The notes: generated by a model not told the origin, from the letters alone. Shown: positions 29,059-50,900, numbered from the stretch's first letter. The stretch: DNA of 64,000 nt from Chitinophagales bacterium (GCA_965216955.1 CBDCGV010000016.1:160715-224714), one strand, 5' to 3'. Made by a program: numbers and translations.

Positions 29059-30318
29059 TCAATAACCATATTTCTCCCCCCACCAATTTTTCAATCTTTT
29101 TTTAAATTCATTTTCTCTAACATTATTTCCCGGTTCATACAACGTTACTCCCTTAATTTTGTCTGGCAAAAATTCCATATCAGAAAAATTCCCTTCATAT
29201 GCATGGGCGTATTGATAATTCTTGCCATAATTTAGTTCTTTCATTAATTGAGTAGGTGCATTTCTAATTTCTAAGGGAACACCAAGATTTTGTGTTTTTT
29301 TCGAAAGATCCAATGCTTTATTGATTGCCTGATAGGATGCATTACTTTTAGGAGAACAAGCCAAATATATCGTTGCTTGACTAAGTATTATTCTACATTC
29401 AGGATAACCTATTGTATTGGTCGCCTGAAAACAAGAGTTTGCTAAAACCAAAGCCGTTGGATTTGCATTCCCAATATCTTCTGAAGCTAAAATCAACAAT
29501 CTTCTGGCAATAAACTTAGGATCCTCACCACCATCAATCATTCTCGCCAACCAGTATACAGCAGCATTCGGATCACTCCCACGAATGGACTTAATAAAGG
29601 CAGAAATGATGTCGTAGTGTTGCTCTCCACTTTTATCATATCTTGCTGTATTCTGTTGAATTGCCTTTTCTACTACTTTATTAGTGATTACCTTTTTATG
29701 ATCTGGAATACTATCTATTGTTATTTCTAATAAGTTAAGTAATTTCCTTGCATCTGCCCCAGACAATTGAAGCAATGCTTCATGCTCTTTAATGACTATA
29801 TCATATTGCTGCAATTGCTCATCATTCGATATGACATTCTCTAACAATGTCAATAATTCCCGACCAGTAAAAGGTTTTAGAACATACACCTGACACCTGG
29901 ATAGTAATGCAGAAATAACCTCAAAAGACGGGTTTTCTGTAGTCGCACCTATTAGAATAATTATTCCATTTTCTACCGCACCTAATAGCGCATCTTGCTG
30001 GGATTTATTAAAACGATGAATTTCATCAATAAAAAGCACCATTTGACCTGCTTTTTTTGCCGTTTGTATCACCGCTCTCACCTCCTTTACTCCTGCACTA
30101 ATGGCACTGAGTGCAGTAAAAGGGATATCTGCACTTTTAGCAAGTATTCTTGCTAGTGTTGTTTTTCCTACCCCAGGAGGTCCCCAAAAAATCATTGAAT
30201 GTAGTTTTCTATTTTGTATAGCGATACGCAATGCTTGACCATCACCAACTAAATGTGCTTGCCCAATATATTCCTCTAAATTTTTTGGACGCATCCGCTC
30301 TGCTAAAGGTACATTCAT
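29059..30318 (-). CDS. rarA: replication-associated recombination protein A (AAA+ ATPase RarA/MgsA)
   Basis: LAERMRP..L.E..GQ.HL, the Walker A motif [35 protein letters not shown] and DPNAA.YWLARM are all present. Confidence 0.93.
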
Positions 30319-30408
30319 AAAACTAAGTTAGTATTAAGTAGTAAGTATTCAATAATAAGAATACCGTTAATATGAGTAATTTTAGTCTAAATAAAGACTG
30401 ATTATAAA

Positions 30409-31443
30409 ATGTATAAACTGTTTATTCGGCCCATTTTCTTTTTAATCTCTCCTGAAAAAGTACATTATATGGCGTTAAATCTTTTAAAGATTGCCATAAA
30501 TTTTCCTTTAATAGGTTTTTTGTTTAAAAAACAACACACCATTATTCACCCTCTTTTAGAAAAAGAAGTTTTTGGCTTAAAATTTAAGAATCCAGTAGGA
30601 TTAGCCGCAGGATTTGACAAAGATGGCAAGTATTTTGACCAATTAGAACACTTAGGGTTTGGATTCATAGAAATAGGTACCGTTACACCGAAAGCTCAAA
30701 ACGGCAATCCAAAACCAAGATTATTTAGACTACCTAAAGATAAGGCACTTATCAATAGAATGGGGTTCAATAATGAAGGAGTTGAAGCTATGGTTTCAAG
30801 GCTAAAAAATCGAAAAACATCAAATGTAATTATCGGCGGAAACATTGGAAAAAACAAAGTTACTCCAAATGAAAATGCCGTAGAGGACTATGTAATTTCC
30901 TTCAAAGCACTTTTCCCATATGTCGACTATTTTGTTGTAAATGTTAGCTCTCCTAATACACCTAATTTACGAGCACTTCAAAACAAAGCGCCACTTACAA
31001 AGCTATTAAGTACCTTAAAAAATTTGAATGAAACTTATGGACAGCCTAAACCTCTACTCCTAAAAATTGCTCCCGACCTAAACAACGACCTTCTTAATGA
31101 TATTATAGACATTGCTGCGGAACTTCAACTAGACGGTCTAGTTGCCTCCAACACAACAATATCTCGAGAAGGACTGGCTACATCTGCAGAGAGAATAGAA
31201 CAAATTGGAAATGGAGGATTAAGCGGACTTCCTGTAAGAAACAGGTCTACTGAAATCATAAAATATATCCATGAAAAGACAGATGGAAGATTGCCTATAA
31301 TTGCAGTTGGGGGGATTTTTAATGCTAAGGATGCCCAAGAAAAACTAGATGCCGGCGCATCTTTAGTTCAAATTTATACAGGCTTTATTTATGAAGGTCC
31401 TGGAGTAGTTAAAAAGATTTGTAAAGGTTTACTCAATTCTTAA
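30409..31443 (+). CDS. pyrD: quinone-dependent dihydroorotate dehydrogenase (class 2)
   Basis: [59 protein letters not shown] and GGLSG, plus an N-terminal membrane-associated helix. Confidence 0.95.
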
Positions 31444-32098
31444 ATGCATATTCAACAATATTCGCCCCCATTTTCAATGCTTTTAATCTAACTTCTTGAG
31501 GGTCTTTATGTACCTCTTGATCTTCCCATCCATCTCCTAAATCACACTCGTAGGTATAAAAAACAACTAATCGCCCTTCGTAAATCAATCCCAGTCCTTC
31601 AGGTGGTTTATTATCATGTTCGTGAATTTTAGGTAATCCTTTAGAAAAACTAAACGTCTGCCTATAAATTTCATGCTGATAAGGCAACTCTATTAATTCT
31701 AATTCAGGAAACACCTTTTTTAACGCAATTCTTACATAAGGGTCCATCCCATAATTATCGTCAATATGTAAAAAGCCTCCAGCGGTTAGATAACTTCTTA
31801 AATTTTCTGCATCGTTATCAGAGAAAACTACATTACCATGACCAGTCATATGAATAAAAGGGACGTTAAATATATCAGGATCTCCAGGCTCAACTTCTAC
31901 AATGTCGGCATCTATATTCATATTTAACTCTTTCTCGCAAAATGAAATAAGATTTGGAAGAGCCGTTGGGTTTGCATACCAATCACCACCGCCACTATAT
32001 TTAAGTAGCCCTATTTTAATAGAAGAACTTTGAGCCTGAGCACTAATAAAAAAAAGTGTACACAGAATAATACAGGAAATAGTTTTAATATTCATCAA
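31433..32098 (-). CDS. DUF4159 domain protein
   Basis: A signal peptide is followed by [22 protein letters not shown] and FIHMTGHGN, as I recall for DUF4159. Its 3' end overlaps the convergent pyrD by 11 nt. Confidence 0.65.
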
Positions 32099-32792
32099 AG
32101 TTCTCTTTTATCTGAGTACAAGCTACTATTGCAGCCGTTTCAACTCTTAAGCGATATTGGCTCAAAGTTATTGGTTGAAATTCATTTTTCATAGCTAATT
32201 TAATTTCCTCTGAAGTGAAATCACCTTCAGGGCCAATTAATATAATGCTATCAGTTTTATTTGTCAAAATATCGGCAATCCGTTTTTTAGCAATTAAGCC
32301 TTCTTCACAAAAAGCAATCATTTTTGTTTCTATTTCTGTTTTCAAAACATCTGAAAAAGTTGTTAATGGAAGTATTTCTGGCTTAACCAACCTATTACTT
32401 TGCTTCGTTGCAGACCTTATAATTTTGCTTATTCTTTCTATATTAATCCTATTCCTCTCTGTTCTCTTTGTCATCAAAGGGATAATCTGTGTCACTCCTA
32501 TCTCTGTTACTTTTTCTACCAACCACTCAAATCGAGCTACCTTTTTAGGCAACGCAACACACAATATAATATCTGTGAGCATTCGTTCATTGGCTAATAA
32601 TTCTTTAAGAATTACTGAGTAATGTCTTTTATTGATTTCTATAATTTCAGCTTTCCAAAGTTTTCCTTTACCATCAATCACTTCAATTTCATCTCCAATA
32701 GAAATCCGTAACACCTTACAGTGTTTACTTTCTTCTTCACTTAAAACTACCAGGTTATTTTCTCCTACTATATCGGCAAAAAATCGATGCAT
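32085..32792 (-). CDS. rsmE: 16S rRNA (uracil1498-N3)-methyltransferase RsmE
   Basis: MHRFF..., the PUA-like N-terminus, KVTEIGV..I.PL.T.R, and LIGPEGDFT..E (SPOUT knot). Confidence 0.85.
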   Translation of the reverse strand: MHRFFADIVGENNLVVLSEEESKHCKVLRISIGDEIEVIDGKGKLWKAEIIEINKRHYSVILKELLANERMLTDIILCVALPKKVARFEWLVEKVTEIGVTQIIPLMTKRTERNRINIERISKIIRSATKQSNRLVKPEILPLTTFSDVLKTEIETKMIAFCEEGLIAKKRIADILTNKTDSIILIGPEGDFTSEEIKLAMKNEFQPITLSQYRLRVETAAIVACTQIKENFDEY

Positions 32793-32798
32793 TCCTCT

Positions 32799-32834
32799 AA
32801 AATAAAAAGGCGCTACTTATTTTGGTAGCACCTT
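32799..32834 (-). terminator. candidate rho-independent terminator ending the giant-gene/porP/porE-like unit
   Basis: On the minus strand, the stem aaggtgctac / gtagcgcctt (one G-U pair) has an 8-nt loop and is followed by TTTTATTTT. It lies between the OmpA-family stop (32925) and the rsmE start (32792). Confidence 0.55.
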
Positions 32835-32924
32835 CTCTCTATTCTTTGTTTATTTTCTTTATTATTCTCCCTTTTATCTTAAATCACACCGCATCCTACG
32901 GTAGTTAAAACGTATCTTCGATAG

Positions 32925-35219
32925 TTAAAAAGGACAATCTGTACATGGATCTACTATGATATCCACTCGCTCTATACTTCGCTGATCAATACCATTGCCA
33001 ATCACCCTAAACTCTGTTCTTCTGTTTCGCTGATGCTCCTCCTCACTACAAGGCACATTGTCCACACATCCATTCACCGTCTGCGTCTCCCCATAGCCGA
33101 CCGCTACCAATCGATCTCTTGAGATTCCTCGTTGTACCAACCAATCTACAGCAGCCTTTGCCCTACGCTCTGATAAAGCAATATTATATGCATAACTCGC
33201 TCTCGCATCCGTATGAGATCCTATCTCTACTATCGTTCCACCATTCAATCTCATAAACTCCTCCACTACACTTAAATCGATCTCCGCCTCATTTCTAATA
33301 TAACTCTGATCAAAATCATAGTAGATATGATGTAATAAAATTCCTCCTCCACGCTCACCAGGCTGTACATAAGGATCTCTCGGGTCTACCACTATCGTCT
33401 GTAACTTTGGCAATGGAACGATCGCCTTCACTGTACCACTAGCTCCTCTTGTCGTCACATCTACACTCCCAGGTCCATAGCCCGTTGCTGTCGCCCCTAC
33501 ATTGTAATCACAATCCACCTCTACCTCATAATAACTCTTCCCACTTATATCACTACTACCCTCCTGCTTATCTTCACTACATAAACTCTGTACCAACACA
33601 CTCGACGTTGGTATTGGATTACGCGTATCCGCATCAATCACCAACACCTCTAAATCCAAGGGCTCTTCCTGCTCTAAGGGGATCTTTACATAGACCTTAC
33701 CACCTGGCTTCACGCCTACCGTGCTCGCCTCCTTCAACTCACAACCGTAACCCTCCGCACAGCCTTCCAAACGATACTCCCTACCAGGCAGTACATTAAA
33801 CTCAAACTCCCCATCACATTCTACCTTTCTGCTGCCGATCTCATCGCCCTCATACATCAACAATACATCTGCTCCACAGATTGGCTCATCCGTCTTCGCA
33901 TCTACTACGATACCTTCCAATGTTATGCCCTCATCGGTGAAACTATAAATATCATCACTGCCATAGCCGCCAGGACGATCACTCGTCAAAAAGCCGCCTG
34001 ACTTATCTTCATTAAAGATCAAACTGAAATCATCATGACTACTATTCAACGGCGCACCCATGTTCTTCACTGCTCCCCAGCTTGTACCACTGCCCTTCAC
34101 ACGGAAGATATCCAAACCACCTAAGCCACCCTGGCCATCACTGGCAAAGTACAACTCATTGTCCTTATCCACATAAGGAAACATCTCATCTCCTTCCGTA
34201 TTGATATCTGGACCTAAGTTCATCGGTACTCCCCAGCTGCCGACGCCTTCTGCCTCACATACATATAAATCCGTGCCACCATAACCGCCAGGCATGTCAC
34301 TAACAAAATATAAATAACTGCCATCTGCACTCACCGCTGGGTGACCGACACTGTATTCATCATTGTTGTACTTAAACTCCCCGATATTCGTCCACTTCTC
34401 TCCCTCTATGTCCGCCGAATAAATCTTCAACTTCACAATCTTATCGCTACTCTTACCCACCTTGCCAAATACACCGCGATTGTCATAGTTGTTTCTCGTA
34501 AACAATACCTTACTGCCCCCCTCTAAAAAAGTCATAGGACCTTCATGGTACTTCGTATTCACTCTGCCCTTAATCGTCTTCGGCTTACTCCAGTTGTCAC
34601 TCTCCTCGCCCCCTTCTTGCTCTACATAGTATAAATCATAAAAGGGCTCCCCGATCCATGTATGTACACGACTCAACGATTGCGCACTATCTCTACTTGA
34701 AGAAAAAATCACTCCTTCTTTGTAGTAATTGGGAGCAAAGTCATACACACTGCTGTTAAAAGGCATATGCTCTAAGGTATAGCGACTCGCATCTTCATAA
34801 AACTGCCGGTAACCCTTAGAAGCCTTCATCTCATTGTCTGCACGGCTATCACTAGGAACAAACTCACGGTACTGACTGTACCACTTCACCGCTTCGCCAT
34901 ACTTCTCATTGATCTGTAGTACCTGAGCATAATACAACAAATGTACAGGCTCCGCCTCTGAATATTGTACCACCTTGCTGTACCAATACTCCGCTTCATC
35001 GTATTGATTCGTCAATCGGTAACAATCTGACAGCTTCCACATCGCCTCAAAATTATCCTCCTTGCTCAGTAAATCCTGATACAACTCGATCGCTGGCGTA
35101 TACGCTAGCTTATCATAAGCCTCATTGGCACGCTGTAGCTTCCCCTGTCCATAAGATGTCATCGACATCGATAGCAGCAGTACTGATAATAAACTTGGTA
35201 GTATGGCTCGTATTTTCAT
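32925..35219 (-). CDS. PorE(PG1058)-like OmpA-family protein, locus-associated paralogue (TPR, PD40 beta-propeller repeats, two CRD-like beta-sandwiches, OmpA_C)
   Basis: A signal peptide is followed by TPR-like AYDKLAYTPAIELYQDLL...YWYSKVV...AVKWYSQY. The PD40-type repeats are GHPAVSADGSYLYFVSDMPGGYGGTDLY, EMFPYVDKDNELYFASDGQGGLGGLDIF and DDFSLIF...GGFLTSDRPGGYGSDDIY. The OmpA_C part reads IGSHTDARAS..YN..LS.RRA.A.V.WL...GI...R....GYGE...........C.E..HQ.NRRTEF. Confidence 0.85.
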   Translation of the reverse strand: MKIRAILPSLLSVLLLSMSMTSYGQGKLQRANEAYDKLAYTPAIELYQDLLSKEDNFEAMWKLSDCYRLTNQYDEAEYWYSKVVQYSEAEPVHLLYYAQVLQINEKYGEAVKWYSQYREFVPSDSRADNEMKASKGYRQFYEDASRYTLEHMPFNSSVYDFAPNYYKEGVIFSSSRDSAQSLSRVHTWIGEPFYDLYYVEQEGGEESDNWSKPKTIKGRVNTKYHEGPMTFLEGGSKVLFTRNNYDNRGVFGKVGKSSDKIVKLKIYSADIEGEKWTNIGEFKYNNDEYSVGHPAVSADGSYLYFVSDMPGGYGGTDLYVCEAEGVGSWGVPMNLGPDINTEGDEMFPYVDKDNELYFASDGQGGLGGLDIFRVKGSGTSWGAVKNMGAPLNSSHDDFSLIFNEDKSGGFLTSDRPGGYGSDDIYSFTDEGITLEGIVVDAKTDEPICGADVLLMYEGDEIGSRKVECDGEFEFNVLPGREYRLEGCAEGYGCELKEASTVGVKPGGKVYVKIPLEQEEPLDLEVLVIDADTRNPIPTSSVLVQSLCSEDKQEGSSDISGKSYYEVEVDCDYNVGATATGYGPGSVDVTTRGASGTVKAIVPLPKLQTIVVDPRDPYVQPGERGGGILLHHIYYDFDQSYIRNEAEIDLSVVEEFMRLNGGTIVEIGSHTDARASYAYNIALSERRAKAAVDWLVQRGISRDRLVAVGYGETQTVNGCVDNVPCSEEEHQRNRRTEFRVIGNGIDQRSIERVDIIVDPCTDCPF

Positions 35220-35278
35220 CGTTTTTCTTTTTTTGTCCTTCTGGTTTCCTTCTTCTATTAGATATAGAAAACTCTAAG

Positions 35279-36286
35279 TTAAAAATATCTTGGCGTTATA
35301 ATCTTACTCTTATCAAAACTAAAGTCAAAGCCCATAATCACCTCATGGGTTCCACTACCAGTGAAATCATTCAACTCCGTTAAAGTATAATCATAGGCAT
35401 AGCCAATCATAAATTGTTTCGTCACCCAAAACTCCAACAACGCATCAAAACTATCCGAATTCGTCAACTTCTCCTTCTCCTCTCGATTGCCAAACGTTGT
35501 TCGATATGTAGCGCCGATGTTTAAGCGGTCAAACAATAAAAAACTTAAGTTAAAGTCCGTAGAAAAAGGACTCTTGTATTCTCCACTTAAGATGTGCTTA
35601 AACATCACCTGAGGACGGATCTTTACCGTACCTGAAGTACCTAAATTGATCACACCTCCTGCCATCGCAAACATGTGTGGTACACGTTGAGCTATTAAGC
35701 CATTCGATAAGCGAGGTTGCTCCTCATTGTACAATTCTGATTTAATGAAGTTCGGTACACTGAAACCTACATAGAACTTGTCTGGATTGTAGAAATAAAA
35801 ACCTGCGCCTACATCCGGCATCACCTTACTTACATCATCCTGTAAGGAAGGATCACCTACATCATTGCTGATCAAACAAGTTAAACAATGCTTGTAATAT
35901 AATATACCCGCATTCACACCAAAACTCAACTTCGTGGCGCCACCACCTAATGGTACACGGTAAGCATACGTTACATTGAACCAGTTTTGGTTTACTTCCC
36001 CTAAACGGTCATTCACAAAGTTAAAGCCTAAGGCTAAATCCTCATTCTTCAAAGGACTATGAATCGAAAATGTCGCATTCTGGGGATGACCCTCGATGCC
36101 CGTCCATTGATTACGGTACAACGCGCGAATGCTTAATACCTCATTCGCCCCTGTATAGGCCGAGTTGATCGGTAGCTTATTGAACATAAACTGCGTGTAC
36201 TGAGGCTCTTGTTGACCCAGCACTGAGATACTTAGAAGCAATAACAACACCCCTAGTGACTTTCGTATTATTCTCATATAGCTCAT
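35279..36286 (-). CDS. type IX secretion system membrane protein, PorP/SprF family
   Basis: A signal peptide is followed by QQEPQYTQFMFNKLPINSAYTG, the family signature N-terminus. It has a beta-barrel-like alternating pattern, a C-terminal ...TPRYF, and a length of about 335 aa. It lies directly downstream of a type-B CTD ORF. Confidence 0.9.
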   Translation of the reverse strand: MSYMRIIRKSLGVLLLLLSISVLGQQEPQYTQFMFNKLPINSAYTGANEVLSIRALYRNQWTGIEGHPQNATFSIHSPLKNEDLALGFNFVNDRLGEVNQNWFNVTYAYRVPLGGGATKLSFGVNAGILYYKHCLTCLISNDVGDPSLQDDVSKVMPDVGAGFYFYNPDKFYVGFSVPNFIKSELYNEEQPRLSNGLIAQRVPHMFAMAGGVINLGTSGTVKIRPQVMFKHILSGEYKSPFSTDFNLSFLLFDRLNIGATYRTTFGNREEKEKLTNSDSFDALLEFWVTKQFMIGYAYDYTLTELNDFTGSGTHEVIMGFDFSFDKSKIITPRYF

Positions 36287-36367
36287 CTTTTCCTTTTTTT
36301 CTTTTTCGCTTTTTAGAGCAGCCGGGGTACTCTATCACCACCGGCTCCCCCGTTATTAATTAATTAC

Positions 36368-37936
36368 TTAGCGTTGTAACGTTATAAAACTTGATAACGC
36401 TTGTCGCTGTAACCCTTCATTCCACCTTAGTATGTAATAATACACTCCATCCGGAAGTGGACGCTCCATATAGGTGCCATCCCAGCCTGTCAATGGATCA
36501 TTTACATTCTCATAATCAGAACATCTGTACACCTCATTACCCCATCTGTTAAAGATGATCAACTCTACATTCTCTCTACCTTCTACACAAGGAATATAGA
36601 ATGTCTCATTGTATCCATCATTATTTGGTGTAATTACTTGTGGTACTATACAATCCCCTATTGTAATAAACACCCATGCCGTATCTACATCATTCGGACC
36701 ACACAATGCCGTATCAGCTGATTCATCGCAGATTACATACTGGAAGCTATCCACACCCTCAAAGTCGGTTGCTGGTGTGTAAGTAATCGTTCCATCAGGA
36801 TTTATTACTGCTGTTCCACCATTTACAGTTGTTGTCGTTGGTAATAAATCACCACTTGTTGGATCCAGCACACCGATCACGATGATCGTATCTCCACTGA
36901 TATCATTCGTAGGGACAGGAATCGTTACAGGAGTATTGAAAGTTGTTATAGTCTTATCATCAACCGCTTCAGGTCTATCTTCTTCAGGTAATACAACAAT
37001 TATGGTCGTATCACAAAGACCCAAAGAAGCATCACAATGAATCACACATAACTGCATCGTATCTACTCTATCAGTTGGTACTATTACCACTCCATTATCA
37101 CAACCCAATCCATCATTAAACACTAGTGTATCTGCTGTGCCCTGATCACAAATGACAGTACTCGTAATCGATCCAGGAAGATCTATTACATCATCCAAGC
37201 ACAATACCGTATCTGGTGTAATAATTGTATCTGTCACCGGCTTAATCGCTATGATGATTGTGGTATCACACAAGCCATTTACACAGTGTACTATACATGA
37301 CGTATCACTACCTCTAAAGTTGTCAATATCATCAATCATTAAGGTGATGCAAGCATTGGTGCTGTTCGGCATCGGAGTAGTCTCTAGACCGTCGCCATTT
37401 TCACAAACTGCTGCACTATCAAATGGTGCGGTAAGCTCTACTATCGTAGCACCCAAGCACGTATCGATAAATTGATCACTTCCTACTGGTATATAGATCG
37501 TATCGATTTCTACTGCAGGACGCAAGATAATGATCGTCGTATCACATTCTGTATCATTACAGTGTACTACACACAGTGTATTATTCGATATTAGTGGTGC
37601 ACTGTTGATCGAAATGGCTACACATTCTGTGGTATCTGCTGTTGCTGTTGAGTTAATACCCTGACCGCATACTGTACTGCTCGTTAATGGACCAGCGATG
37701 TCTAAGCCACTAGTCACACATACTTCTATCACCGTATCTGTTGGAAGTACATCACGATAGATTGTATCGACTGTAATCACTTCTTCTGGAATCAAGACTA
37801 TAATCGTTGTATCACAGTCTGTATCATTACAATGTACTACACACAGTGTATCGTATTCGATGTCAGTGGGGCATCTGTAATTGATCGAGATCTGATACAC
37901 ATTCGGTGGTATCTGCAGTCGCTGTTGAATTAGCAC
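36368..37936 (-). CDS. C-terminal portion of the giant surface protein: four-Cys modules, a cadherin/Big-like domain, and a gliding motility-associated C-terminal domain (T9SS type-B CTD)
   Basis: The last roughly 95 aa (about 36371-36660) read VITPNNDGYNETFYIP...LIIFNRWGNEVY...WDGTY...LPDGVYYYILRW...SSFITLQR, which matches the CHU_C/TIGR04131-type signature as I recall it. Upstream is AVDD..T....PV.I.V..ND...G.ITYTP...F.G.DSF.Y.I.D (cadherin-like). There is no signal peptide or credible start; the ORF opens inside a degraded module repeat. Confidence 0.85.
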   Translation of the reverse strand: MLIQQRLQIPPNVYQISINYRCPTDIEYDTLCVVHCNDTDCDTTIIVLIPEEVITVDTIYRDVLPTDTVIEVCVTSGLDIAGPLTSSTVCGQGINSTATADTTECVAISINSAPLISNNTLCVVHCNDTECDTTIIILRPAVEIDTIYIPVGSDQFIDTCLGATIVELTAPFDSAAVCENGDGLETTPMPNSTNACITLMIDDIDNFRGSDTSCIVHCVNGLCDTTIIIAIKPVTDTIITPDTVLCLDDVIDLPGSITSTVICDQGTADTLVFNDGLGCDNGVVIVPTDRVDTMQLCVIHCDASLGLCDTTIIVVLPEEDRPEAVDDKTITTFNTPVTIPVPTNDISGDTIIVIGVLDPTSGDLLPTTTTVNGGTAVINPDGTITYTPATDFEGVDSFQYVICDESADTALCGPNDVDTAWVFITIGDCIVPQVITPNNDGYNETFYIPCVEGRENVELIIFNRWGNEVYRCSDYENVNDPLTGWDGTYMERPLPDGVYYYILRWNEGLQRQALSSFITLQR

Positions 37937-38905
37937 CCTTGACCGCAGACCGTACCACTTGTTAAGTGGTCCATCAATATCTAAGCCACTACTTACGCAC
38001 GCAAGTACTTCGTATCAAGGTATCTGTTTGAAGTACATCACCGGCACATAGATTGTATCTACCGTAATTGGATCTTACAGGCACTAATACAACAATGGTT
38101 GTATCACAGTCCGTATCGTTGCAGTGTACTACACATAGTGTATTATTCGATGTCAGTGGTGCACTGTTGATCGAGATTGCTATATCTAAGCACTCTGTCC
38201 GTATCATGCATCACTATGCTGTTGAATTAGCACCCATGACCACATACTAGAAGCACGCTTGTCAATGCGTGTCCAGCGATGTCTATAAGCCACTAGTCAT
38301 CACATACATTCTATCACTAGTATCTTCTGTAGGAAGTACATGGTACGATAAATCGTATCTACGTTGTAATCGGATCTTCAGGGATCTAAGATAATGATCG
38401 TTGTATCACAGTCCGTATCGTTACAGTGCACTACACACAGTGTATTATTCTCATGTTAGTGGTGCACTATTGATTTCGAGATGGCTACACACTCCGTGGT
38501 ATCTGCAGTCGCTGTTGAATTAGTTACCCTGACCACAGACCGTACCACTTGTAAGTGGACCATCGATATCTAATTCACTTGTTACTCAAACATAATGATC
38601 CAGCAGTATCTGTCGGAAGCTATATTCTCTATGCGAATTGTATCTACTAACTAATTGGCAACTTCTGGAATCAATACAACAATGGTTGTCTCACAACTTG
38701 CACCGCTACAATGTTCCACACATAATGTATCATTCTCTGTCAATGGAACATTATTGATTGACAAGTATCTATACATTCCGTGTCATCGGCTGTTACAGTC
38801 GCATCTACTACCCTGACCACATACAGTACCGCTTGTAATTGGACCACTTAAAGTCAAAGGTTGTACCGTAAACACATACTTCTCTTATTGTATCCGCTGC
38901 CTGAG
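37937..38905 (-). pseudogene. frameshift- and stop-riddled segment of the giant gene (3-4 degraded copies of the four-Cys ...CVVHCNDTDCDTTI... module)
   Basis: The module DNA is recognisable in shifting frames (CVVHCNDTDCDTT at about 38101 and 38403; CVEHCSGASCETT at about 38688). The giant ORF's TAG at 38906-38908 is itself caused by a frame slip, because the +2 frame continues AQAADTIREVCV, the normal module start. Spacing of the gtatcaca landmark is 285-302 nt here against 255-276 nt in intact copies. Confidence 0.7.
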
Positions 38906-41900
38906 CTACTGATTACTGGTAACAGTATCCACCACCGGACATTCTACACATACATAAACACTGTCCATACATTCAGGACTGGCTTTGTCTACCAATGTAA
39001 TCCAGTGACAACCTGATGATAATCCTTCTATCAACGTGCCTTTGCTCTCTTTTCTCAACTCATACAATTCTATTACTATTCCTGTTGCTGGAACAAAGAT
39101 CTCTAGCACTCCATAATCATTCGCATTTCTTCCACCCTCTATTGAATTACCATCTATCAATGTCCATGCTCCCGCAGGATCCATCGTTTGCATATAAGAT
39201 GTCAATTCTGCTAACGTACTGTAATTGAAGTTAGGATCTGCTACATCGACACCGTTGATCATCCAGCTCAACAAGAAGAAGTCACTACCTACATAATCAC
39301 CATCCAATATCGCATCTCTGAACTCATATCTCACAAACGTATCTACATCACAGATAAATGGTAAATCAAACTGTACCTCTCCGTCGATGTACAAGTCATA
39401 GCCTGTAAACTCTGTAAATGGTAATGGCAAGCAGTAATCGCCTGTTCCGCCATTACAAGCCACTAGAGCACTATCCTCACTGATGATATCATCAGGACAT
39501 GGTACGGTTACAATTATTATCGTGGTATCACATACGCCATCTGCATCACAGTGTATCACACAAGCAGTGTCTGTACCTATGAAATCTTCTGGTGTCGTAA
39601 CACGCACACAATTGCTCGTATCATTCACACTCACCGTCACATCATCTCCCTGATCACAGATACTTGCACTCACCACATCGCCGATCTGTAAGATGGAAGT
39701 ATCTAAACAAATCTCCTCTGTGGAATCCTGTGGTATCGTTACCCATATCGTATCTATCGGTGGTACTTCCACTACTGGTGGAATCGTTACCACGATGATC
39801 GTTGTATCACAGAAACCTGTGGTACTATCACATACATAGACACATACTGTTTCTACTGTATCATCAATACTGCCAGATGTAATCTCCACACACAACGCAC
39901 TGCTTACTACCGTGCTCACTAACGTGCCACCATCACAGATCACTAGTGTGCTCGTTGGTGTAAAGCCAGTCTCTATATCCACACATACTTCCTCTGTGCT
40001 ATCCACTGGAATCGTTACTGGGATCGTATCTATCACCGGTGGCTCTACGCAATCTACACAGACTACCACACTATCCGCTGGACATAAGCCATCTTTAGAA
40101 CGTAAGGTGATTGTATGACAACCCGCAGGTAGATCTTCGATCAACGTTCCTTTGCTCTCTTTTCTCAACTCATACAACTCAAGTACGATACCCGTTGTTG
40201 GTATAAAAATCTCCATCACTCCATAGTCATGCGTATTTCTACCGCCTTCGATTGAACCTCCATCTACTAGCTCCCATAATCCTTCTGGATCTACACTTAA
40301 CATGAAGTCTCTCAATTCTTCTAATGTTGAGTATTGGAAATTCGGATCTACTACATCTACTCCATCTATCATCCATCTCAACAAGAAGAAGTCATTACCT
40401 ATATAATCGCCATCTGCTATCGCATCTCTGAAGTCATATCTAATGAATGTATCCACATCACAGATAAATGGTAAGTCAAAGTATACCACACCATCGATGA
40501 AGATATCATACCCTGTATGCTCTGTAAATGGTAATGGCAAACAGTAATCACCGGTCTCCGTTACAGGATCACAGAACACATAAGCCGTGTCTGGAAGATC
40601 CAAGCAATCAGGACACAATGTATTATCAACCGTTACAGTTATCGTATCAGTATCAACACAACCATCACCATTCACTACTCCAACCACATATGTTGTAGTA
40701 ACAATAGGACTCTCAGTTATAACTGAAGTTGTATCTCCTGTACTCCATATGTAACCAATAGCCGTTGCACTAGTTGCAGTCAGTGTCACTTCTTCACCAG
40801 GACAAATTGTAGTATCGCCTGGAGTTATCACAACATTTACCTGATCATTTAGTGCCGTTATTGTTATTACAATACTATCGCAACCGTTTGCTGCACCTCC
40901 TACTATGGTATCTACCACAGTACCTACTTCTGCAGGGTCACAAGTTGTCGCATTCACTGTTGATGTAGATGGTGGTAATAATGTTGTTACTGTTGTTACA
41001 ATACTATCGCAACCATTCGCTGCGCCACCTACTATCGTATCTACTTCTGTACCCGCTTCTGCAGGATCACAGGTTGTCGTATTTACAGTAGATGTAGATG
41101 GTGGTAATAATGTTGTTACTGTTGTTACAATACTATCGCAACCATTCGCTGCGCCACCTACTATTGTGTCTACGTCAATACCCGCTTCTGCAGGATCACA
41201 GGTTGTTGTATTCACTGTAGCTCTTGCCGTTGGTAATAATGTAGTTATTGTTGTTACTATACTATCACAACCATTCGCTGCGCCACCTACTATCGTATCT
41301 ACTTCTGTTCCTACTTCTGCAGGATCACAGGTTGTTGCATTTACTGTAGCACTTGCTGTTGGTAATAATGTAGTTACTGTTGTTACTATACTATCACAAC
41401 CATTCGCGGCACCACCTACTATCGTATCTACTTCTGTTCCTACTTCTGCAGGATCACAGGTTGTCAAGTTCACTGTTGAGCTTGCCGTTGGCAATAATGT
41501 AGTTATTGTTGTTACTATACTATCACAACCATTGGCTGCACCATCTACTATCGTATCTACCTCTGTTCCTACTTCTGCAGGATCACAGGTTGTCAAGTTC
41601 ACTGTAGCACTTGCTGTTGGCAATAATCTAGTTATTGTTGTTACTATACTATCACAACCATTCGCTGCACCGCCTACTATCGTATCTACTTCTGTTCCTA
41701 CTTCTGCAGGATCACAGGTTGTTGCATTTACTGTAGTACTAGCTGTTGGTAACAATGTTGTTACAGTTGTTACTATACTATCACAACCATTCGCGGCACC
41801 ACCTACTATCGTATCTACTTCTGTTCCTACTTCTGCAGGATCACAGGTTGTTGCATTTACTGTAGCACTTGCTGTTGGCAACAATCTAGTTATTGTTGTT

Positions 41901-44900
41901 ACAATACTATCACAACCATTCGCTGCACCACCTACTATTGTATCTACTTCTGTTCCTACTTCTGCAGGATCGCAAGTCGTTGCATTTACCGTAGTACTAG
42001 CTGTTGGTAACAATGTTGTTACTGTAGTTACTATACTATCACAACCATTCGCTGCACCGCCTACTATCGTATCTACTTCTGTTCCTACTTCTGCAGGATC
42101 ACAAGTCGTTAAGTTCACTGTTGAACTTGCCGTCGGCAATAATGTAGTTACTGTAGTTACAATACTATCACAACCATTCGCTGCACCACCTACTATTGTA
42201 TCTACTTCTGTACCTACTTCTGCAGGATCACAAGTTGTCAAGTCTACTGTTGAACTTGCTGTTGGTAACAAGGTTGTTACTGTAGTTACAATACTATCAC
42301 AACCATTCGCTGCACCACCTACTATCGTATCTACTACCGTACCTACTTCTGCAGGATCGCAGGTTGTCAAGTTCACTGTTGAGCTTGCTGTTGGCAATAA
42401 GCTTGTTATTGTTGTTACAATACTATCACAACCATTCGCTGCACCACCTACTATCGTATCTACTACCGTACCTACTTCTGCAGGATCACAGGTTGTTGCA
42501 TTTACTGTAGCACTTGCTGTTGGCAATAATGTAGTTACTGTTGTTACAATACTATCGCAACCATTGGCTGCACCACCTACTATCGTATCTACTACCGTAC
42601 CTACTTCTGCAGGATCGCAGGTTGTCAAGTTCACTGTTGAGCTTGCTGTTGGCAATAAGCTTGTTATTGTTGTTACTACACTATCACAACCATTCGCTGC
42701 ACCATCCACTATCGTATCTACTTCTGTACCTACTTCTGCAGGATCACAAGTCGTCAAGTTCACCGTTGAGCTTGCTGTTGGCAATAAGCTTGTAGTTGTA
42801 ATTACAATACTATCACAACCATTCGCTGCACCGCCTACTATCGTATCTATTACTGTACCCACTTCTGCAGGATCACAAGTCGTTGCATCTACCGTAGAAA
42901 TAGGTGTCGGCAACAAGCTTGTTGTCGTTGTTACAATACTATCACAACCATTCGCTGCACCACCTACTATCGTATCTACTACCGTACCTACTTCTGCAGG
43001 ATCACAAGTCGTTGCATTTACTGTAGTTCTTGCCGTTGGCAATAAGCTTGTTATTGTTGTTACAATGCTATCACAACCATTGGCTGCACCGCCCACTATC
43101 GTATCTACTACTGTACCTACTTCTGCAGGATCACAGGTCGTTGTATTCACTGTAGAACTTGCTGTTGGCAATAAGCTTGTTATTGTTGTTACTACACTAT
43201 CGCAACCATCAGATCCAGCAACTACATCTATAGTTGTTCCTGTATCAGCAGGGTTACAGCTTGTTGCAAGTACTGTTACACTGTCAATTTCATTTACAGT
43301 TAAGTTCAACGTTACTACACTATCACAACCATTCGCCTGTGTCAACGTAACCGTATTTGTTCCTGTAGTATTAAATACGCTTGTTCCAACTGTAACGCTT
43401 TCTCCTTCACAAATTGTGCTATCCACAACAATGCTATCAATAGGATTAACTGTTAAGTTCAATGTCACTACACTATCACAACCATTCGTTTGAGTAAGTG
43501 TTGTCATATGTGTACCAGTTGTGTTATAACTGCTATTTCCAATAGTCACACTCTCTCCTTCGCAAATCGTACTATCTACTGAGGTCATTGCGGTATCACA
43601 GAAGATCGACACAATAAAGATCGTCGTATCATATGCCATCGTTGTACTATCGTACGTCACTACGCAAATGCTATCTACATAATCACCTACTGTATTATCA
43701 CTTCTGAAGGTTATACATCCAAATGGTGTTACTTCATAATTACCATATACGCCACTTGTACCCGTAGTTCCACCACCGCACAACCAACTATTATCTGCAT
43801 TCAACACCCCATTCTCGAATGGACTATCACATACGGTAATAGAATCTTTCACTGGTAATGCAAACCAGATTGTATCCACTTCTGATGGTATACTAACTAT
43901 TATAATTGTTGTATCCGTCTGACCTGTGGTGCTATCCGTTACTACCACACAAATACTATCTATAAAGTCTCCAATATTCGTATTCGTATTGTAGATCAAG
44001 CAGCCATCATCTGTTAATGTATAACTACCATAATCACTAGATCCTGTAGTTCCTCCTTCACACAACTCAGCACTGTATCCATCTGTTCCAAATCCAGGCT
44101 CTATTGCTACACATACTGTATCTACACTATCCTGAGGTATGGTTACATAAATCGTATCCGGTGTTGGGGTGATACTTGGGATAAAGATCGTTGTATCATA
44201 GCTCATTGTTGTGCTATCATAAGTTACTACACATATTGTATCTACATAAACTCCAACTGTTGTCAGACTTGTAAAGGTGATACATCCTGCAGGGTCTACG
44301 ATAAAGTTACCGTATACTCCACTGGTTCCTGTGGTACCTCCTGTACACAACCAGCTATCATCAGCACTTACTACTCCATTCTCAAAGTCTGTATCGCATA
44401 CTACCGTATCCGTTTCTGTCGGAATAGTAAAGTATATCGTATCAATGTCTTCAGGCGTATAGAAGCCAGCATCTATGGTTAAGTCATCTCCTGTTGCAGG
44501 ATCAAAGCTAAATACTGCTGTCTGACCGGTTACTTGATTTACATCACTATCTATTGTATCATTTACTCCTTGATTCTGTGGACTTGTTATGTATGGATCC
44601 CCTGTTGTTGTAACATCAAAGGCTACAATGTAGTCTCCCTCTTCCACATCGGTAAACAGATAAGAACCATCCATTTCTGTCACTTCCGTTTGAAGCGTAT
44701 CTCCAGTAACTGCATCTATCAAGTATACAGTAACTCCCTCTATGCCTACTTCTGTACCATCTTGAATACCATCCTGATTTATATCATTCCAGACATAATC
44801 TCCGATATTGGCTGTCAATGGAATTATCGTAGGAATAAAGATCGTTGTATCTACATCTCCGTCATCATCAATAGTGATTACACAGATCGTATCTACAAAA

Positions 44901-47900
44901 TCACCAGGAATTGTATCACTAACATATACTAAACATCCAGTATCAGCAGCAAACCACTCTCCATAGATATTAGTAAAGTCTAATGGGTCACACAATTGTG
45001 TGGTTGAATTTCCGTTTACTGCATTCTCTAGAATTGGATCACAAACTATAATTGAATCTTCTACTAACAATTCAAAGTAGATCGTGTCTCTTTCCGTAGG
45101 AATAACAAATCCTGCATCAATTGTTAAGTCATCACCTGTTGATGCATCAAAAGGGAATACATCGGTCTGTCCATCCTCATTAGCATCACTATCCACATTG
45201 TCAAGACCAGCATCTTTTGTCGTAGGTATGAAATCAAACCCTGTAGTATTTGTTTGCATATCAAATGCTACAATATAGTTTCCTGAAGTAATGTCTTCGA
45301 ATAAGTATGCACCATTTGCATCGGTGGTTGTTACTCTTAACGTATCTCCAGTATCACCATCTATTAAGTAAACTGTTACTCTTTCTATACCTACTTCTCC
45401 ATTATCTTGCAATCCATTTCTATTATCGTCTACCCAAACGGTATCACCGATATTTGCTGTTGGCAAGATTGTTACAATAAAGATTGTTGTATCTATATTT
45501 CCTGACGTATCCGTTGTTACCACACAGATGGTGTCAATGAAATCAGCTGGTGTAGCATCACTATTGTATGTGATACATCCAGACTCTGAAACGGTCCAAT
45601 CTCCAAAGCTGCTACTTGTTGTTCCAGCATCACACAATTGTGTATTTGTAGGATTGGTTACACCATTCTCTAATGTATCGTCACATGCTGTAACTGTACT
45701 ATCGACAGGTACTTCAACATAAATCGTATCCTTAGGTTCAATAGCCTCAAACAATCCAACATCAATTGTTAAATCATCTCCTGTTGTAGGATCGAATGTA
45801 AATGGTGCTGTTTGTCCTGTTACAGGATTCACATCACTATCTAGACTATCTACTGTTGCATTCTGAGGACTTACATCATAAGCAACCCCTGTATTCGTAG
45901 GATCAACTGCGACCACATATTCTCCAGGAACCACATTTTCGAATAGATATAATCCATCCGCATCTGTAGTATCTGTTGCAACAGTATCTCCTGTGGTATT
46001 GTTAATTAAGTAAACAATTACCCCTTCAATACCTTCTTCTGTACCATCTTGGATACCATCCTCATTTTCATCATTCCAAACATAATCTCCAATGTCTGCT
46101 ATCGGCGTATATCCTGCATCAATTGTTAAATCATCTCCAGTAGTAGGATCAAACGTAAATGGTGCAGTCTGTCCAGTTGTTGGATCTGCGTCACTATCTA
46201 AGCTATCCACTGTAGTATTTTGCAATGTTCCAACTAACTCCAGTCCTGTATTACTAGTACTAATGTCAAACGCGACAATATAATCTCCAGCAAGCACATC
46301 TTCGAACAAGTACAATCCATCTTGATCTGTAGTAGTTGTTCTTAATGTATCTCCTGTAGCCGCATCTATCAAGTACACTGTTGCATCCTCAATAGGATCT
46401 TCTGTAGGATCTTGAATACCGTCATAATTTACATCTACCCAAACATAATCACCAATATTGGCTGTTGGAATAATTGTAGATATAAAGATGGTGGTATCAA
46501 TATCTCCATCAGGATCAATTGTTACTACACAAATAGTATCTAAGAAATCACCAGGGATATTACCACTATTGTATACTAAGCATCCCGTATTAATTGCAAA
46601 CCACGTTGCATAAATACTTGACATATCTAAAGGATCACACAATTGTGTAACAGGCGATCCACTCACACCATTTTCAAGCATCGAGTCACAAACTGTTATT
46701 GTACTGTCTTCTGGTAATTCGAAGTAAATCGTATCCTTCAACATTGGCTCAAATAGACCAGCATCCAATGTCAGGTCATCACCTGTTGTTGGATCAAAGT
46801 TGAATGGTGCTGTTTGTCCTGTTACAGGATTCACATCACTATCTAAACTATCTACGGTAGCATCTTGAGGACTAATCATATAATTAGGTCCTGCATTGCT
46901 AGGATCGATTGCAACTATATATTGACCTTCACCAATATTCTCAAACAGATACATTCCATCTTGGTCTGTAGTAGTTGTTCTCAACGTATCTCCAGTAACT
47001 GCATCAATCAAGTATACTATTACATCTTCGACACCTTCTTCTGTAGGATCTTGAATACCATCTCTATTGATATCAGACCACACATAATCACCGATATCCG
47101 CTGTAGGTGTGATGCTTACAATAAAGATTGTAGTATCTCTGGTTCCCGTTGTATCAGTAGTTACCACACAAATGGTATCTACAAAATCTCCTGCTGTTGT
47201 ATCACTGTTATAAGTTAAGCATCCAGGTTCTGTAGGACTCCAATCTCCAAAGTCACTACTAGTAGTTGCCACATCACACAACTGTGTATTAGTAGGAATG
47301 GTTACTCCATTCTCTAATGTATCATCACAAGCTGTGATTGTGCTATCTACCGGTAATTCGATATAAATCGTATCTACCTCCATTGGAACGATATATCCTG
47401 CATCAATTGTTAAGTCATCTCCTGTTGCAGGATCAAAATTAAATGGTGCTGTTTGTCCTGTTACCGGATTAGCATCACTATCTAAACTGTCAACTGTTGC
47501 GTTTTGTCCTGTTCCAGCATAATCAATTCCATCAGCATTTGTTGTTACATCAAATGCAACAATATAATCTCCTTCTGACACATCTTCGAACAAGTACAAT
47601 CCATCTTGATCTGTAGTTGTTGTTCTCAACGTATCATTTGTATTAGCATCTATTAAGTAAACTGTTACCCCTTCGATACCATCTTCATTGCCATCTTGGA
47701 TACCATCTCTATTAGCATCTGCCCATACATAGTCTCCAATATTAGCAGTTGGTGTAATCGTTACAATAAATATTGTTGAATCAATATTACCTGATGTATC
47801 CGTAGTTACCACACAAATAGTATCTACGAAATCACCTGCTGTTGTATCACTATTATAAGTTAAACATCCAGGTTCTAATACAGACCAATCTCCAAAGTCG

Positions 47901-50900
47901 CTGCTGGTAGTACCCGCATCACACAACTGCGTTGTAGTTGGATTAGTTACATCATTTTCTAACGGATCATCACAAACTGTAATCGTGCTATCTACTGGCA
48001 ATTCAATGTAGATTGTATCAGATGGCTCAAAAGATTCAAATAAACCAGCATCAATTGTTAAATCATCACCTGTTGTAGGATCAAATGTAAACGGTGCTGT
48101 AGTTCCTGTTGGATCTATATCACTATCTAAACTATCTACTGTTGCATTTTGAGGACTAATCTCATAATCTAATCCAGTATTTGTAGGATCAATAGATACT
48201 ACATACTCGCCAGCAGTTACATTTTCGAATAAGTATAAACCATCCGCATCTGTTGTATCCGTAGCAATTGTATCTCCTGTAGTATTATCTACTAAGTAAA
48301 CAATTACTCCTTCAATACCCTCTTCATTTCCATCTTGTATACCATCTTCGTTAGCATCATTCCATACATAGTCTCCAATGTCTGCAGTTTGAATGAAACC
48401 AGCATCAATTGTCAAATCATCTCCTGTTGCAGGATCAAAATTAAACGGTGCTGTTTGTCCTGTTGTAGGATCTGCATCACTATCTAAACTATCTACTGTT
48501 GCATTTTGGGCAGTTCCAATATATTCTAACCCATCAACATTTGTTGTTATATCAAAAGCAACTATGTAATCTCCCTCTGACACATCTTCGAACAAGTACA
48601 ATCCATCTTGATCTGTTGTTGTTGTTCTCAACGTATCATTCGTATTAGCATCAATTAAGTAAACCGTTACCCCTTCGATACCATCTTCGTTTCCATCTTG
48701 GATACCATCTTTATTTGCATCTGCCCAAACATAGTCTCCTATATCTGCAGTTGGAGTTATTGTTACAATAAAGATTGTTGTATCTGTATGTCCAAGTGTA
48801 TCTGTAGTTACAACACAAATTGTATCTACAAAGTCTCCAGCAGTTGTATCACTATTATAAGTAAGACATCCAGGTTCTGATACAGACCAGTCTCCGAAGT
48901 CGCTACTTGTTGTACCAGCATCACACAATTGAGTCGTAGTAGGATTAACTACTCCGTTCTCCAATGCGATATCACATTCTGTTATCGTACTATCTACTGG
49001 TAATTCGACATATATCGTATCTACTTCGTCTGGAATAAAGAATCCAGCATCGAATGTTAAGTCATCTCCATCGGCAGGATCGAAAGCAAATAGATCTGTC
49101 AATCCTGTATTTGGATCAGCATCACTATCATCGTCATCAGCCGTGGTATTTTTACCTGTTCCAATATAATCTATACCATCTACATTGGTAGTTACATCAA
49201 AGCCTATTTGATAAACTCCCAGTGGCACATCTTCGAACAAGTACAATCCATTAGAGTCTGTCGTTGTTATTCGCAATGTATCGCCACCAGTAGCTGCATT
49301 AATTAAATAAACTGTTACACCTTCTAGACCCACTTCATTGTCATCCTGAATACCATCTTTACTAGCATCAACCCAAACATAATCTCCAATGTCTGCTTTT
49401 GGCGTTATAGTAATAATGAATATGGTTGTATCAGTTTCTCCATTATCATCTACAGTAACTACGCAAACCGTATCTATAAACTCTGCTGGAATTGAATCAG
49501 AATTGTATGTTAAACAACCTTCATTTGTAGCGAACCAATCTCCATAATCACTTGATCTATCAAATGGATCACACAATTGAGTTGTAAATACATTGTCCAC
49601 TGAATTCTCCAACTGATCATCACATACTGTTAATGTACTGTCAACCGGCAATTCAAAGTAAATGGTATCATGTGTTCTTGGTACGTTGATGATTACAATT
49701 GTAGTATCGTACATCATCACACTGCTATCATAAGTCACCACACAAATCGTATCTACTCCTATGCCAGGCTCATTATCTGCTGTATATACTAAACAATCCT
49801 CAACCAATGTCCACTCACCCTCAGGACTTGACCCTGAAGTAGTTCCATCACAAAGTAGTGTTGAGAAGTCATCACCATCAAAACCTTCTTCATGTTCTGC
49901 ACAAACGGTATCGGTTTCATACTGTGGTATGGTTACAATCACCGTATCTGGTACAGGTACAATTGTTGGTATAAAGTACGTGGTATCATAGGTGTCCTCC
50001 GTGCTATCATAGGTTACCACACAGATCGTATCTACATCTCTGCCTACTGTGGTATCACTGTAGAATGTCAAACAACCGGCAGGTTCTGTAACAAAGGTAC
50101 CCCAAGGCTCACTTGTTCCTGTTGTACCTCCTGTACACAACCAACTATCACTAGCTGTTTCAACGCCATTTTCAAATGCATCATCACAGACTGTAATAGA
50201 ATCTTCCACTGGTAATTCAAACCAAACAGTATCCACCACTGATGGAATATTGACAATAATTATTGTCGTATCGTACATCATTAGACTACTGTCATAAGTC
50301 ACCACACAAATCGTATCGACGCCTGCACCAGGAATATCATTCGTATTGTATACAAGGCACTCTTCTAATACAGACCAATCACCATATCTACTAGATCCAG
50401 TCGTACTTCCATCACACAATGTTGTTGAGAAGTCGCCACCATCAAAACCTAACTCTGGTGTCGTACATATCGTATCACTATCTTCTTGTGGGATAGTAAC
50501 AATAATTGTATCCGGCTCAGGAGTGATTGTAGGAATGAAATAAGTTGTATCATATGTCATTTCTGTGCTATCATAAGTTACTACACAGATCGTATCTACA
50601 TATCTACCCACCGTCATGTCACTGAAATAAGTTAAGCAACCTTCAGGATCTACTATATAACTACCCCATGGTGCCTTACTACCAATTAAGCCACCTTCAC
50701 ACAACCAGCTAGTACTAGCCGTCTTTACTCCATTTTCAAATGCTGAGTCACATACTGTAATCTCATCATTTATTGGTAATTCAAACCATATCGTATCTAC
50801 TACTGATGGAATATTGATGATGACAATATTGGTATCATACATCATTAAGCTGCTATCGTAGGTTACTACACAGATCGTATCCACTCCGTTACCAGGAATA

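Follow-up and report, generated by a model that had tools for sequence, protein, structure and literature searches.

A patch of dense frameshifts about 1 kb long divides a giant adhesin gene in a 64,000-nt stretch of a Chitinophagales genome (GCA_965216955.1 CBDCGV010000016.1:160715-224714; this whole stretch is called the window below). We believe, with a probability of roughly 93%, that this patch is a consensus or assembly error and not biology. The extra bases it contains are absent from independent reads, and taking them out restores the open reading frame, the repeat units and the modules, so we read the patch as an artefact. The real gene is almost certainly one uninterrupted ORF, 9,184 codons or longer, whose 5' end lies outside the window.

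As deposited, the gene is in two pieces. The giant minus-strand ORF, 8,353 aa as called, ends at a TAG at 38906-38908; no stop interrupts its frame as far as base 64000, where it leaves the window, and its true length therefore exceeds 8,353 aa. The pieces and their neighbors are the following, in window coordinates.

32925 to 35219, minus strand: PorE-like / CHU_0125-like OmpA-family protein, downstream of the PorP-like gene (NF052230 E = 9.8e-112, NF053607 E = 4.1e-126, both matches under the curated full-length cut-offs)
35279 to 36286, minus strand: PorP/SprF-family T9SS outer-membrane protein (PF11751 E = 5e-67; TIGR03519 227 bits, cut-off 90.55)
36368 to 37936, minus strand: C-terminal ORF as called, 522 aa, which we take to be the C-terminal end of the giant gene; true stop at 36368-36370
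36380 to 36649, minus strand: CHU_C / T9SS type B sorting domain, the predicted secretion signal (PF13585 E = 2.5e-21, aa 430-519)
36707 to 36979, minus strand: Big_9 / cadherin-like Ig domain before the CTD (PF17963 E = 9.2e-13, aa 320-410)
38919 to 64000, minus strand: body of the giant adhesin ORF, stop-free, with SprB repeats, nine SdrD_B domains and 18 tandem 129-nt repeats

The product would be a giant SprB-like cell-surface adhesin, whose mechanism of secretion and anchoring we infer by homology. The body matches PF13573 SprB repeats (E = 1e-68) in 7 stretches, and the type B sorting domain is well above threshold in both TIGR04131 (57.3 bits, cut-off 35) and PF13585 CHU_C (76 bits, cut-off 27). 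The PorP/SprF gene begins 82 nt downstream of the cargo's stop, and its protein is presumed to be the cognate partner of the type B CTD. The gene order of cargo, PorP/SprF and PorE-like has been described before (PMC9143113). On sequence grounds the locus underneath the patch is a normal and complete type IX secretion cassette, with a predicted type B CTD cargo, a PorP/SprF protein and a PorE-like protein.

It is easiest to understand this locus by its likeness to SprB/SprF of Flavobacterium johnsoniae, where a giant repetitive surface protein with SprB repeats and a type B CTD also has a PorP/SprF gene immediately downstream. SprB, a protein of 669 kDa, is expressed together with SprF and also binds to it (PMC9143113). 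With at least 9,184 aa inside the window, the protein here exceeds SprB in size, and we liken the two by domains and gene order, not by orthology. The nine SdrD_B domains, 18 tandem repeats of 43 aa and a family of four-Cys modules of about 90 aa that has no Pfam model are additions relative to SprB. Here a PorE-like gene follows the PorP-like gene, which is not so at sprB/sprF, and this arrangement has been suggested to mark a non-mobile, wall-anchored cargo (PMC9143113).

The patch itself lies at the junction of the two called ORFs and takes in four modules.

37809 to 38100, minus strand: patch repeat unit 1, 292 nt raw and 270 nt corrected; 22 extra bases by paralogue alignment, 22 read-supported
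37852 to 38918, minus strand: error patch, 1,067 nt, 57 insertion events adding about 78 spurious bases, some 12 substitutions, no deletions; about 989 nt corrected
38101 to 38402, minus strand: patch repeat unit 2, 302 nt raw and 270 nt corrected; 32 extra bases, 25 listed and 7 unlisted
38403 to 38687, minus strand: patch repeat unit 3, 285 nt raw and 273 nt corrected
38688 to 38905, minus strand: more divergent four-Cys module, the first after the junction, containing 38868-38885
38906 to 38908, minus strand: spurious TAG stop

A first-pass annotation of this DNA had described a frameshift patch of about 1 kb and a giant ORF ending at a TAG created by a frame slip. Both are present in the sequence, and extra bases at 38910 and 38917 are what puts the TAG in frame. 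Between 37852 and 38918 the module motifs GPLTSGTVCGQG, NSTATADTTECV and LCVVHCNDTDCDTTI are spread over all three minus-strand frames, stops number 18-27 per frame, and no frame stays open for more than 73 codons. Right after the TAG the adjacent frame reads SVAQAADTIREVCVYGTTFDF. The annotation took AQAADTIREVCV for the normal start of the next module; it is indeed read in the adjacent frame, but it is partly shaped by extra bases, and the reads give AQAADTIGLCLG in its place, which is 6 nt shorter and net in-frame. It also placed the return of the clean frame near 37850-37936. The frame does resume at about 37851, but 37852-37936 is still out of frame, and the 522-aa ORF's GTG start and roughly its first 28 codons, which occupy those bases, are artefactual.

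The extra bases extend from 37852 to 38917. The density is about 7%, or one insertion per 19 nt or so. The total of 78 is made up of 71 bases with listed positions (54 events of 1-4 nt) and 7, their positions inferred, from the gap total of the X2 contig; a further 5 of the 78 (37874-37892) were derived from contig loose ends. Single bases make up 40 of the 54 listed events and the others are of 2-4 bases, all of them insertions in the window, which refines an earlier description of mostly single-base indels. The landmark gtatcaca recurs in the patch at spacings of 292 and 302 nt, and of 285 nt with a one-mismatch landmark, as against 255, 276 and 270 nt in intact copies. The net insertion bias that had been drawn from these over-long units stands, with 78 extra bases and none missing. 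Tandem Repeats Finder called nothing in 36300-41000 and found no short-period repeat; the 270-nt units escaped it because they are too divergent or too damaged.

Four public runs (X1-X4) contain the locus in their Logan contigs. They are not known to be the runs from which this assembly was made, and they resemble environmental or mixed samples of low depth (2-7x); Logan contigs drop rare variants. The flanks match exactly, X2 over 37141-37721 and X3 over 39157-39396, each with 0 mismatches and 0 gaps, and the damage is as localised as had been claimed. Inside the patch the contigs lack the 71 listed window bases (54 events), add none, and carry about 12 substitutions. None of the listed insertions was present when we looked for them in the matching contigs of every run, and contigs from different runs and samples are concordant in the patch, X1 with X2 and X1 with X3. 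Across the spurious TAG, a 153-nt contig from X1, aligned to 38852-39012, differs from the window by 8 gaps and 1 substitution; the corrected reading there is ...ECPVVDTVTVIVAQAADTI..., and VVDTVTVIVAQAADTI is an example of a peptide across the former junction in the corrected product. The share of sampled words found in the runs tells the same story, 0.84-0.88 for the flank 30000-37800 and at most 0.18 for the patch. These contigs come close to the read check that the annotation had proposed, made here on reads that are not the assembly's own, and they bear out its artefact reading.

Removing the read-supported bases gives canonical module sequence in one frame in every segment tested. When all 78 bases are deleted no stops remain, and the giant ORF is fused with the 522-aa CHU_C ORF into one. 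The fused ORF extends from the edge of the window as far as the stop at 36368 and encodes at least 9,184 aa. The corrected patch consists of four clean four-Cys modules, intact with cysteines and motifs conserved, and correction brings the units of 292, 302 and 285 nt down to 270, 270 and 273 nt. A comparison made independently of the reads agrees. Alignment to the intact paralogous unit at 37539-37808 alone requires 22, 32 and 15 extra bases in the three units and no missing ones, and it confirms the number of unlisted bases (7). The extra bases placed in this way fall within 2 nt of read-flagged sites in 19 of 22, 25 of 32 and 6 of 15 cases.

The architecture of homologues is also that of the corrected gene. 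The closest one, P0001 (42% identity), aligns unbroken across the equivalent junction into Big_9 and CHU_C, and P0002 and P0003 have four-Cys modules and then the CTD in one polypeptide. These belong to the CHU_C 'gliding motility-associated C-terminal domain' proteins of Saprospiraceae and other Bacteroidota, which share the order of four-Cys modules, Big_9/cadherin-like domain and CHU_C. P0001 also has the preceding DYCLP...FDLPFICDVDT domain and GCDSIVTT repeats, as here. The relatives recovered are 31-42% identical; at 807-1,628 aa they are very much shorter, and there are many fragments among them. A search of a 5.8-billion-protein collection for a near-identical protein or a patch-spanning fragment found none, so the homologues speak to architecture, without protein-level confirmation of the corrected sequence. 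The GTDB species genomes, scanned with the 522-aa ORF, gave only distant matches of 36-39% identity (Chitinophaga, Lunatimonas, Sphingobacteriales) and no orthologous locus, and exact-sequence look-ups with the PorP-like protein and the 522-aa ORF returned no record.

The obvious biological alternative, raised in the first-pass annotation, is that the insertions are real in the sequenced strain and that inactivation of the adhesin is very recent and has parted the body from its CTD and the CTD fragment from any signal peptide. The deposited sequence does read this way. The public runs are not proven to be the same strain, and the giant ORF body at 38919-48900 is poorly represented in them (0.09-0.34 of words), so the population may differ from the sequenced strain in this gene. 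However, in the 1 kb of the patch 57 insertion events stand beside about 12 substitutions and not one deletion, its bounds are sharp and its flanks identical to independent reads, and the insertions lie away from homopolymers and simple repeats. Bacterial mutation yields substitutions far in excess of indels and is deletion-biased. Once the insertions are removed the modules are intact, the cysteines are kept and there are no stops, so no decay accompanied the insertions. We know of no mutational process that scatters insertions of 1-4 nt every 19 nt or so over 1 kb. With the insertions missing from the public reads, we consider a freshly dead adhesin very unlikely. Slightly less probable again is that the 57 or so insertions are real by way of an unknown, highly localised insertion-generating process, such as error-prone untemplated repair synthesis in the repeat array. 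If that were true, such a process would have just knocked out a giant adhesin with every codon otherwise intact.

A genuine bacterial pseudogene was among the candidates we rejected; the disruptions are not reproduced in the matching public contigs, and the mixed mutation spectrum and the loss of conserved residues are both absent.

The cell could also be decoding the frame changes, through programmed frameshifting, transcript editing or phase variation. Beyond the frameshifts being there we see nothing in favor of this, and the patch would ask for more than 50 frame changes through 18-27 stops per frame, far beyond any recoding system known to us. The inserted strings include GC, AG and GCAC, and there is no slippery or simple-repeat tract at the insertion sites. 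The bases are moreover already missing from independent DNA contigs, and we regard the probability of any such decoding as negligible. A phase-variable contingency locus was likewise dropped as a candidate, since the events number over 50, are scattered and all lie outside simple repeats, and Tandem Repeats Finder gave no short-period repeat.

The more serious disagreement is about what kind of artefact this is. One could argue for a 'union' consensus from mixed templates, in which reads or a PCR product of several paralogous units were collapsed. The patch does lie wholly within an array whose 270-nt units share 80-90% identity, and a pure insertion profile fits. Within 38868-38885 there are 6 net in-frame extra bases, the window reading DTIREVCVYG and the reads DTIGLCLG; these turn GLCLG into REVCVY, like the IEVCV motif of neighboring units. 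With its canonical-looking EVCV motif, the piece could also be real variation, which would speak against our preferred reading at this point. Against a union consensus, the extra bases show no association with positions that differ or are shared between copies in the corrected sequence (23 of 57 against 23.8 expected, p = 0.89), many inserted letters have no paralogue match (for example GC, GC and AG at 37997-38005), and the most divergent first module (38688-38905) is affected as well. We think this origin doubtful, at perhaps one chance in five. The same count led us to drop the idea that the errors spare the repeat-shared parts of modules, as in k-mer-based hybrid correction.

Gene-fragmenting indel errors are a known problem of long-read assembly, and short-read polishing is limited where mapping is hard (PMC12007338). 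The patch resembles the false pseudogenes made in this way, in which short indels give frameshifts and premature stops that split a real gene, and it sits in a repeat array. It differs from typical long-read assembly errors in being one 1-kb patch at about 7% density instead of genome-wide errors at low density. Long-read errors are mostly homopolymer-linked indels, and deletions exceed insertions in most nanopore tables (PMC12007338), whereas here 100% are insertions and they are not homopolymer-associated, since only 14 of the 40 single insertions equal a neighboring base (chance about 44%). This profile, without deletions and with that share of matching neighbors, is unlike a typical modern platform. 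It may be closer to raw PacBio CLR-type reads or a poor gap-closing read.

We return then to the reading we prefer, a consensus or assembly error. Indels far outnumber substitutions (57 events against about 12) and are confined to a read-sized tract, which is what marks an artefact. Within the array of similar 270-nt repeats, about 1 kb (37852-38918) would have been taken from uncorrected, insertion-rich sequence, the likely source being an unpolished read, either a single-molecule long read or a low-quality gap-closing one. Some 78 spurious bases would then have produced more than 50 frame shifts and the TAG at 38906-38908, and a gene caller would have split one gene into ORFs of '8,353 aa' and '522 aa'.

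It is important to realize what follows for this record, in which neither a pseudogene nor a pair of genes should be annotated here. Pseudogene counts, adhesin catalogues and 'orphan CTD' lists drawn from this genome would be wrong at this locus. The case is also a worked example of how error patches can be spotted from sequence, by insertion-only indels, over-long units, a lack of substitutions alongside them and abrupt boundaries. We are almost certain that the frameshift patch is not a real feature. The gene itself is, as far as its sequence can tell us, a T9SS type B CTD adhesin that is ordinary except for its very large size, with its predicted PorP-like and PorE-like partners.

The adhesin gene is deposited in two pieces on the reverse strand. 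Between them lies a patch of about 1 kb (37852-38918, minus strand) in which a recurrent four-Cys module is broken by frameshifts. We believe, with a probability of roughly 93%, that this patch is a 1-kb tract of insertion errors that makes one giant T9SS adhesin gene look like two, and that the errors are in the deposited sequence and not in the organism. The ORF listing gives the pieces as follows.

Terminates at TAG 38906-38908, minus strand: giant ORF, called at 8,353 aa
36368..37936, minus strand: downstream ORF, 522 aa

The giant frame is open to base 64000 with no in-frame stop, therefore it overruns the window edge and exceeds its listed length; the true start of the gene, with the expected signal peptide, lies upstream of the window. 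A TTG at 63967 is given as the start in the ORF listing, yet the frame stays open from there to the edge (63967-64000). The first-pass annotation described the giant ORF as stopped by the TAG with the frames hopping after it, and both the ORF listing and a three-frame translation confirm this. In the translation (37700-39300) the motifs of the module, which is about 90 aa long, switch frame repeatedly and read …DTIYRDVLPTDT.IEVCV.SGLDI.GPLTSGTVCGQG.NSTATADTTECV.ISINSAPLTSNNTLCVVHCNDTDCDTTI…. Each frame of the patch has 18-27 stops, the maximum open stretch is 73 codons, and GC content across the region is nothing unusual. The spacings of the gtatcaca landmark are also as that annotation gave them: in the patch they are 292, 302 and 285 nt, and intact copies have 255, 276 and 270 nt.

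Independent evidence comes from Logan contigs of four public runs (X1-X4; one study, two samples, 2024), all of which contain the locus at a local depth of 2-7. These runs may not be the reads behind this assembly, appear to be low-depth, mixed samples, and have lost rare variants in their contigs. Outside the patch, contigs match the window with 0 mismatches and 0 gaps (X2 over 37141-37721, X3 over 39157-39396). Inside it they depart from the window nearly always by gaps alone.

Contigs aligned within the patch
37914-38063: X2 contig, 1 mismatch, 14 gaps
38055-38299: X2 contig, 3 mismatches, 22 gaps
38286-38450: X2 contig, 2 mismatches, 11 gaps
38544-38804: X1 contig, 2 mismatches, 10 gaps
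38852-39012: X1 contig, 1 mismatch, 8 gaps

Every listed event is a base absent from the reads and none is a base added in them, therefore the extra bases sit in the window. The 54 listed events comprise 71 bases, alongside about 12 substitutions; four of the events (5 bases, 37874-37892) were deduced from loose ends of contigs, and 7 further bases at 38250-38289 are known solely through the gap total of an X2 contig. The runs and samples agree, X1 with X2 and X1 with X3, at the patch sites compared. Extra bases begin at 37852 and end at 38917, with a clean match from 38919 on. Sampled words are shared with the runs at 0.84-0.88 in the flank 30000-37800 versus at most 0.18 in the patch. The gene body at 38919-48900 is also weakly represented (0.09-0.34 of words); either the adhesin body differs between the sampled population and the sequenced strain, or repeats assemble poorly at 2-7x.

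Once only the bases listed from the reads are deleted, every tested segment reads as canonical module sequence without a change of frame; 38286-38450, for example, gives NNTLCVVHCNDTDCDTTIIILIPEDPITVDTIYRDVLPTDTMIEVCVTSGL. With all 71 + 7 (38250-38289) bases deleted, an unbroken frame of 9,184 codons enters at the window edge and ends with the stop at 36368. The corrected patch holds four intact modules, with repeat-unit spacings of 270, 270 and 273 nt, each divisible by three. Without the extra bases at 38910 and 38917 the TAG at 38906-38908 would be out of frame, and the corrected junction reads …ECPVVDTVTVIVAQAADTI…. An artefact was already the favoured reading of the first-pass annotation, and it gains support from reads that lack the insertions and from a frame that correction restores.

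The alternative, that the adhesin gene was genuinely and recently inactivated, is in our opinion very improbable. A real pseudogene with 57 indel events is expected, from bacterial mutation spectra, to have many more substitutions, some deletions and damage elsewhere. Instead the corrected modules retain all cysteines and motifs, and the insertions are absent from independent DNA. The damage is, as proposed earlier, confined to about 1 kb, with sharp borders and perfect adjoining sequence in a gene of 27 kb. Recoding and phase variation were also considered; neither can explain why the frame changes over 50 times at scattered, non-repetitive sites.

One site deserves separate mention. At 38868-38885 six extra bases, net in-frame, change GLCLG in the reads to REVCVY in the window, which is similar to the IEVCV motif of sister units. 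These bases could be real variation or the trace of a mixed-template consensus. A further contig variant, …ADTLGLCL…, with a loose end at 38867, is found in X1 and X3 and absent from the window, therefore related sequences coexist in the samples.

The insertion-error reading can also be checked without reads, by global alignment of the three raw patch units to the intact neighbour unit 37539-37808. The patch units need 22, 32 and 15 extra bases and have 0 missing bases. The read-supported count for the first is also 22, and the 32 of the second equals 25 listed plus 7 unlisted bases. The reads flag a site no more than 2 nt from the inferred position in 19/22, 25/32 and 6/15 cases.

The earlier claims of a net insertion bias and of mostly single-base indels both hold, since only extra bases were found and 40 of the 54 listed events are single (12 are double, 1 triple and 1 quadruple). 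The inserted letters are T 29, C 17, A 15 and G 10. Single insertions are identical to a neighbouring base in 14/40 cases, with about 44% expected by chance, therefore homopolymer slips are not the cause. Events are clustered (median spacing 10 nt, clean runs up to 106 nt), and on the corrected sequence the clean stretches show no association with the repeat-shared parts of the module (23/57 versus 23.8 expected, p = 0.89). Over a tract the size of a read, insertions run at about 7.3%, substitutions at about 1.2% and deletions at 0, a profile resembling single-molecule sequence left uncorrected or a low-quality read used to close a gap. Gene-fragmenting indels are documented for long-read assemblies, and short-read polishing is limited where regions map poorly (PMC12007338).

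Joined in one frame, the pieces encode a protein with SprB repeats (PF13573, 7 stretches), nine SdrD_B domains, two DYCLP…FDLPFICDVDT domain copies, several four-Cys modules for which Pfam has no model, a Big_9 / cadherin-like domain and, at its C-terminus, a T9SS sorting domain of type B (PF13585, TIGR04131). Features in and beside the gene are these.

40857-43209, in the giant gene: tandem repeat, 18 copies of 129 nt (43 aa), 88% identity, unit motif …TTCDPAEVGT.VDTIVGGAANGCDSIVTT.T.LLPTAS…
35279-36286, minus strand: PorP/SprF-family gene, directly downstream of the giant gene
32925-35219, minus strand: PorE-like OmpA-family gene, after the PorP/SprF-family gene

An 862-aa ORF on the plus strand (40905-43493) lies nearly all inside the repeat array, which most likely holds it open as a spurious antisense ORF. 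Pfam matches to IBV_3B, VBS, ERCC4 and Sec3_C_2 over 38909-51508 (minus strand) are nominally significant with zero accepted stretches; they are artefacts of composition or repeats and do not belong in the annotation of the giant ORF. A second PorE-like / CHU_0125-like OmpA-family gene lies at 27172-29052 (plus strand), less than 8 kb from the first. Both score far under the curated full-length cut-offs, and only 32925-35219 belongs to the cassette of cargo, PorP-like and PorE-like genes. A cognate PorP-like protein accompanies type B CTD cargo in secretion and serves as its anchor, and a PorE-like partner has been proposed as the cell-wall anchor for non-mobile cargo (PMC9143113). The gene order here agrees with that arrangement, and secretion and anchoring are assigned by homology.

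Among the relatives found by database search, some of the weaker ones are labelled Saprospiraceae MAG proteins. The closest is P0001, a fragment of 807 aa at 42% identity; it has the upstream domain as well, and its alignment runs unbroken over the window's TAG junction into modules, Big_9 and CHU_C. Modules and CTD also share a single polypeptide in P0003 and in P0002, which is 1,379 aa long and has a signal peptide. The module (…DT.IEVCV…GP.TS.TVCGQG…ECV.I.…TLCVVHC…CDTTIIV…) is present here at 36980-39000 (minus strand), with earlier copies near 39400-40300, and Pfam gives no match for it at E <= 0.01 over residues 1-310 of the 522-aa ORF. It recurs in many CHU_C proteins, including P0002 (about 14 copies) and P0003, and has the look of a T9SS type B cargo domain family that has yet to be curated.
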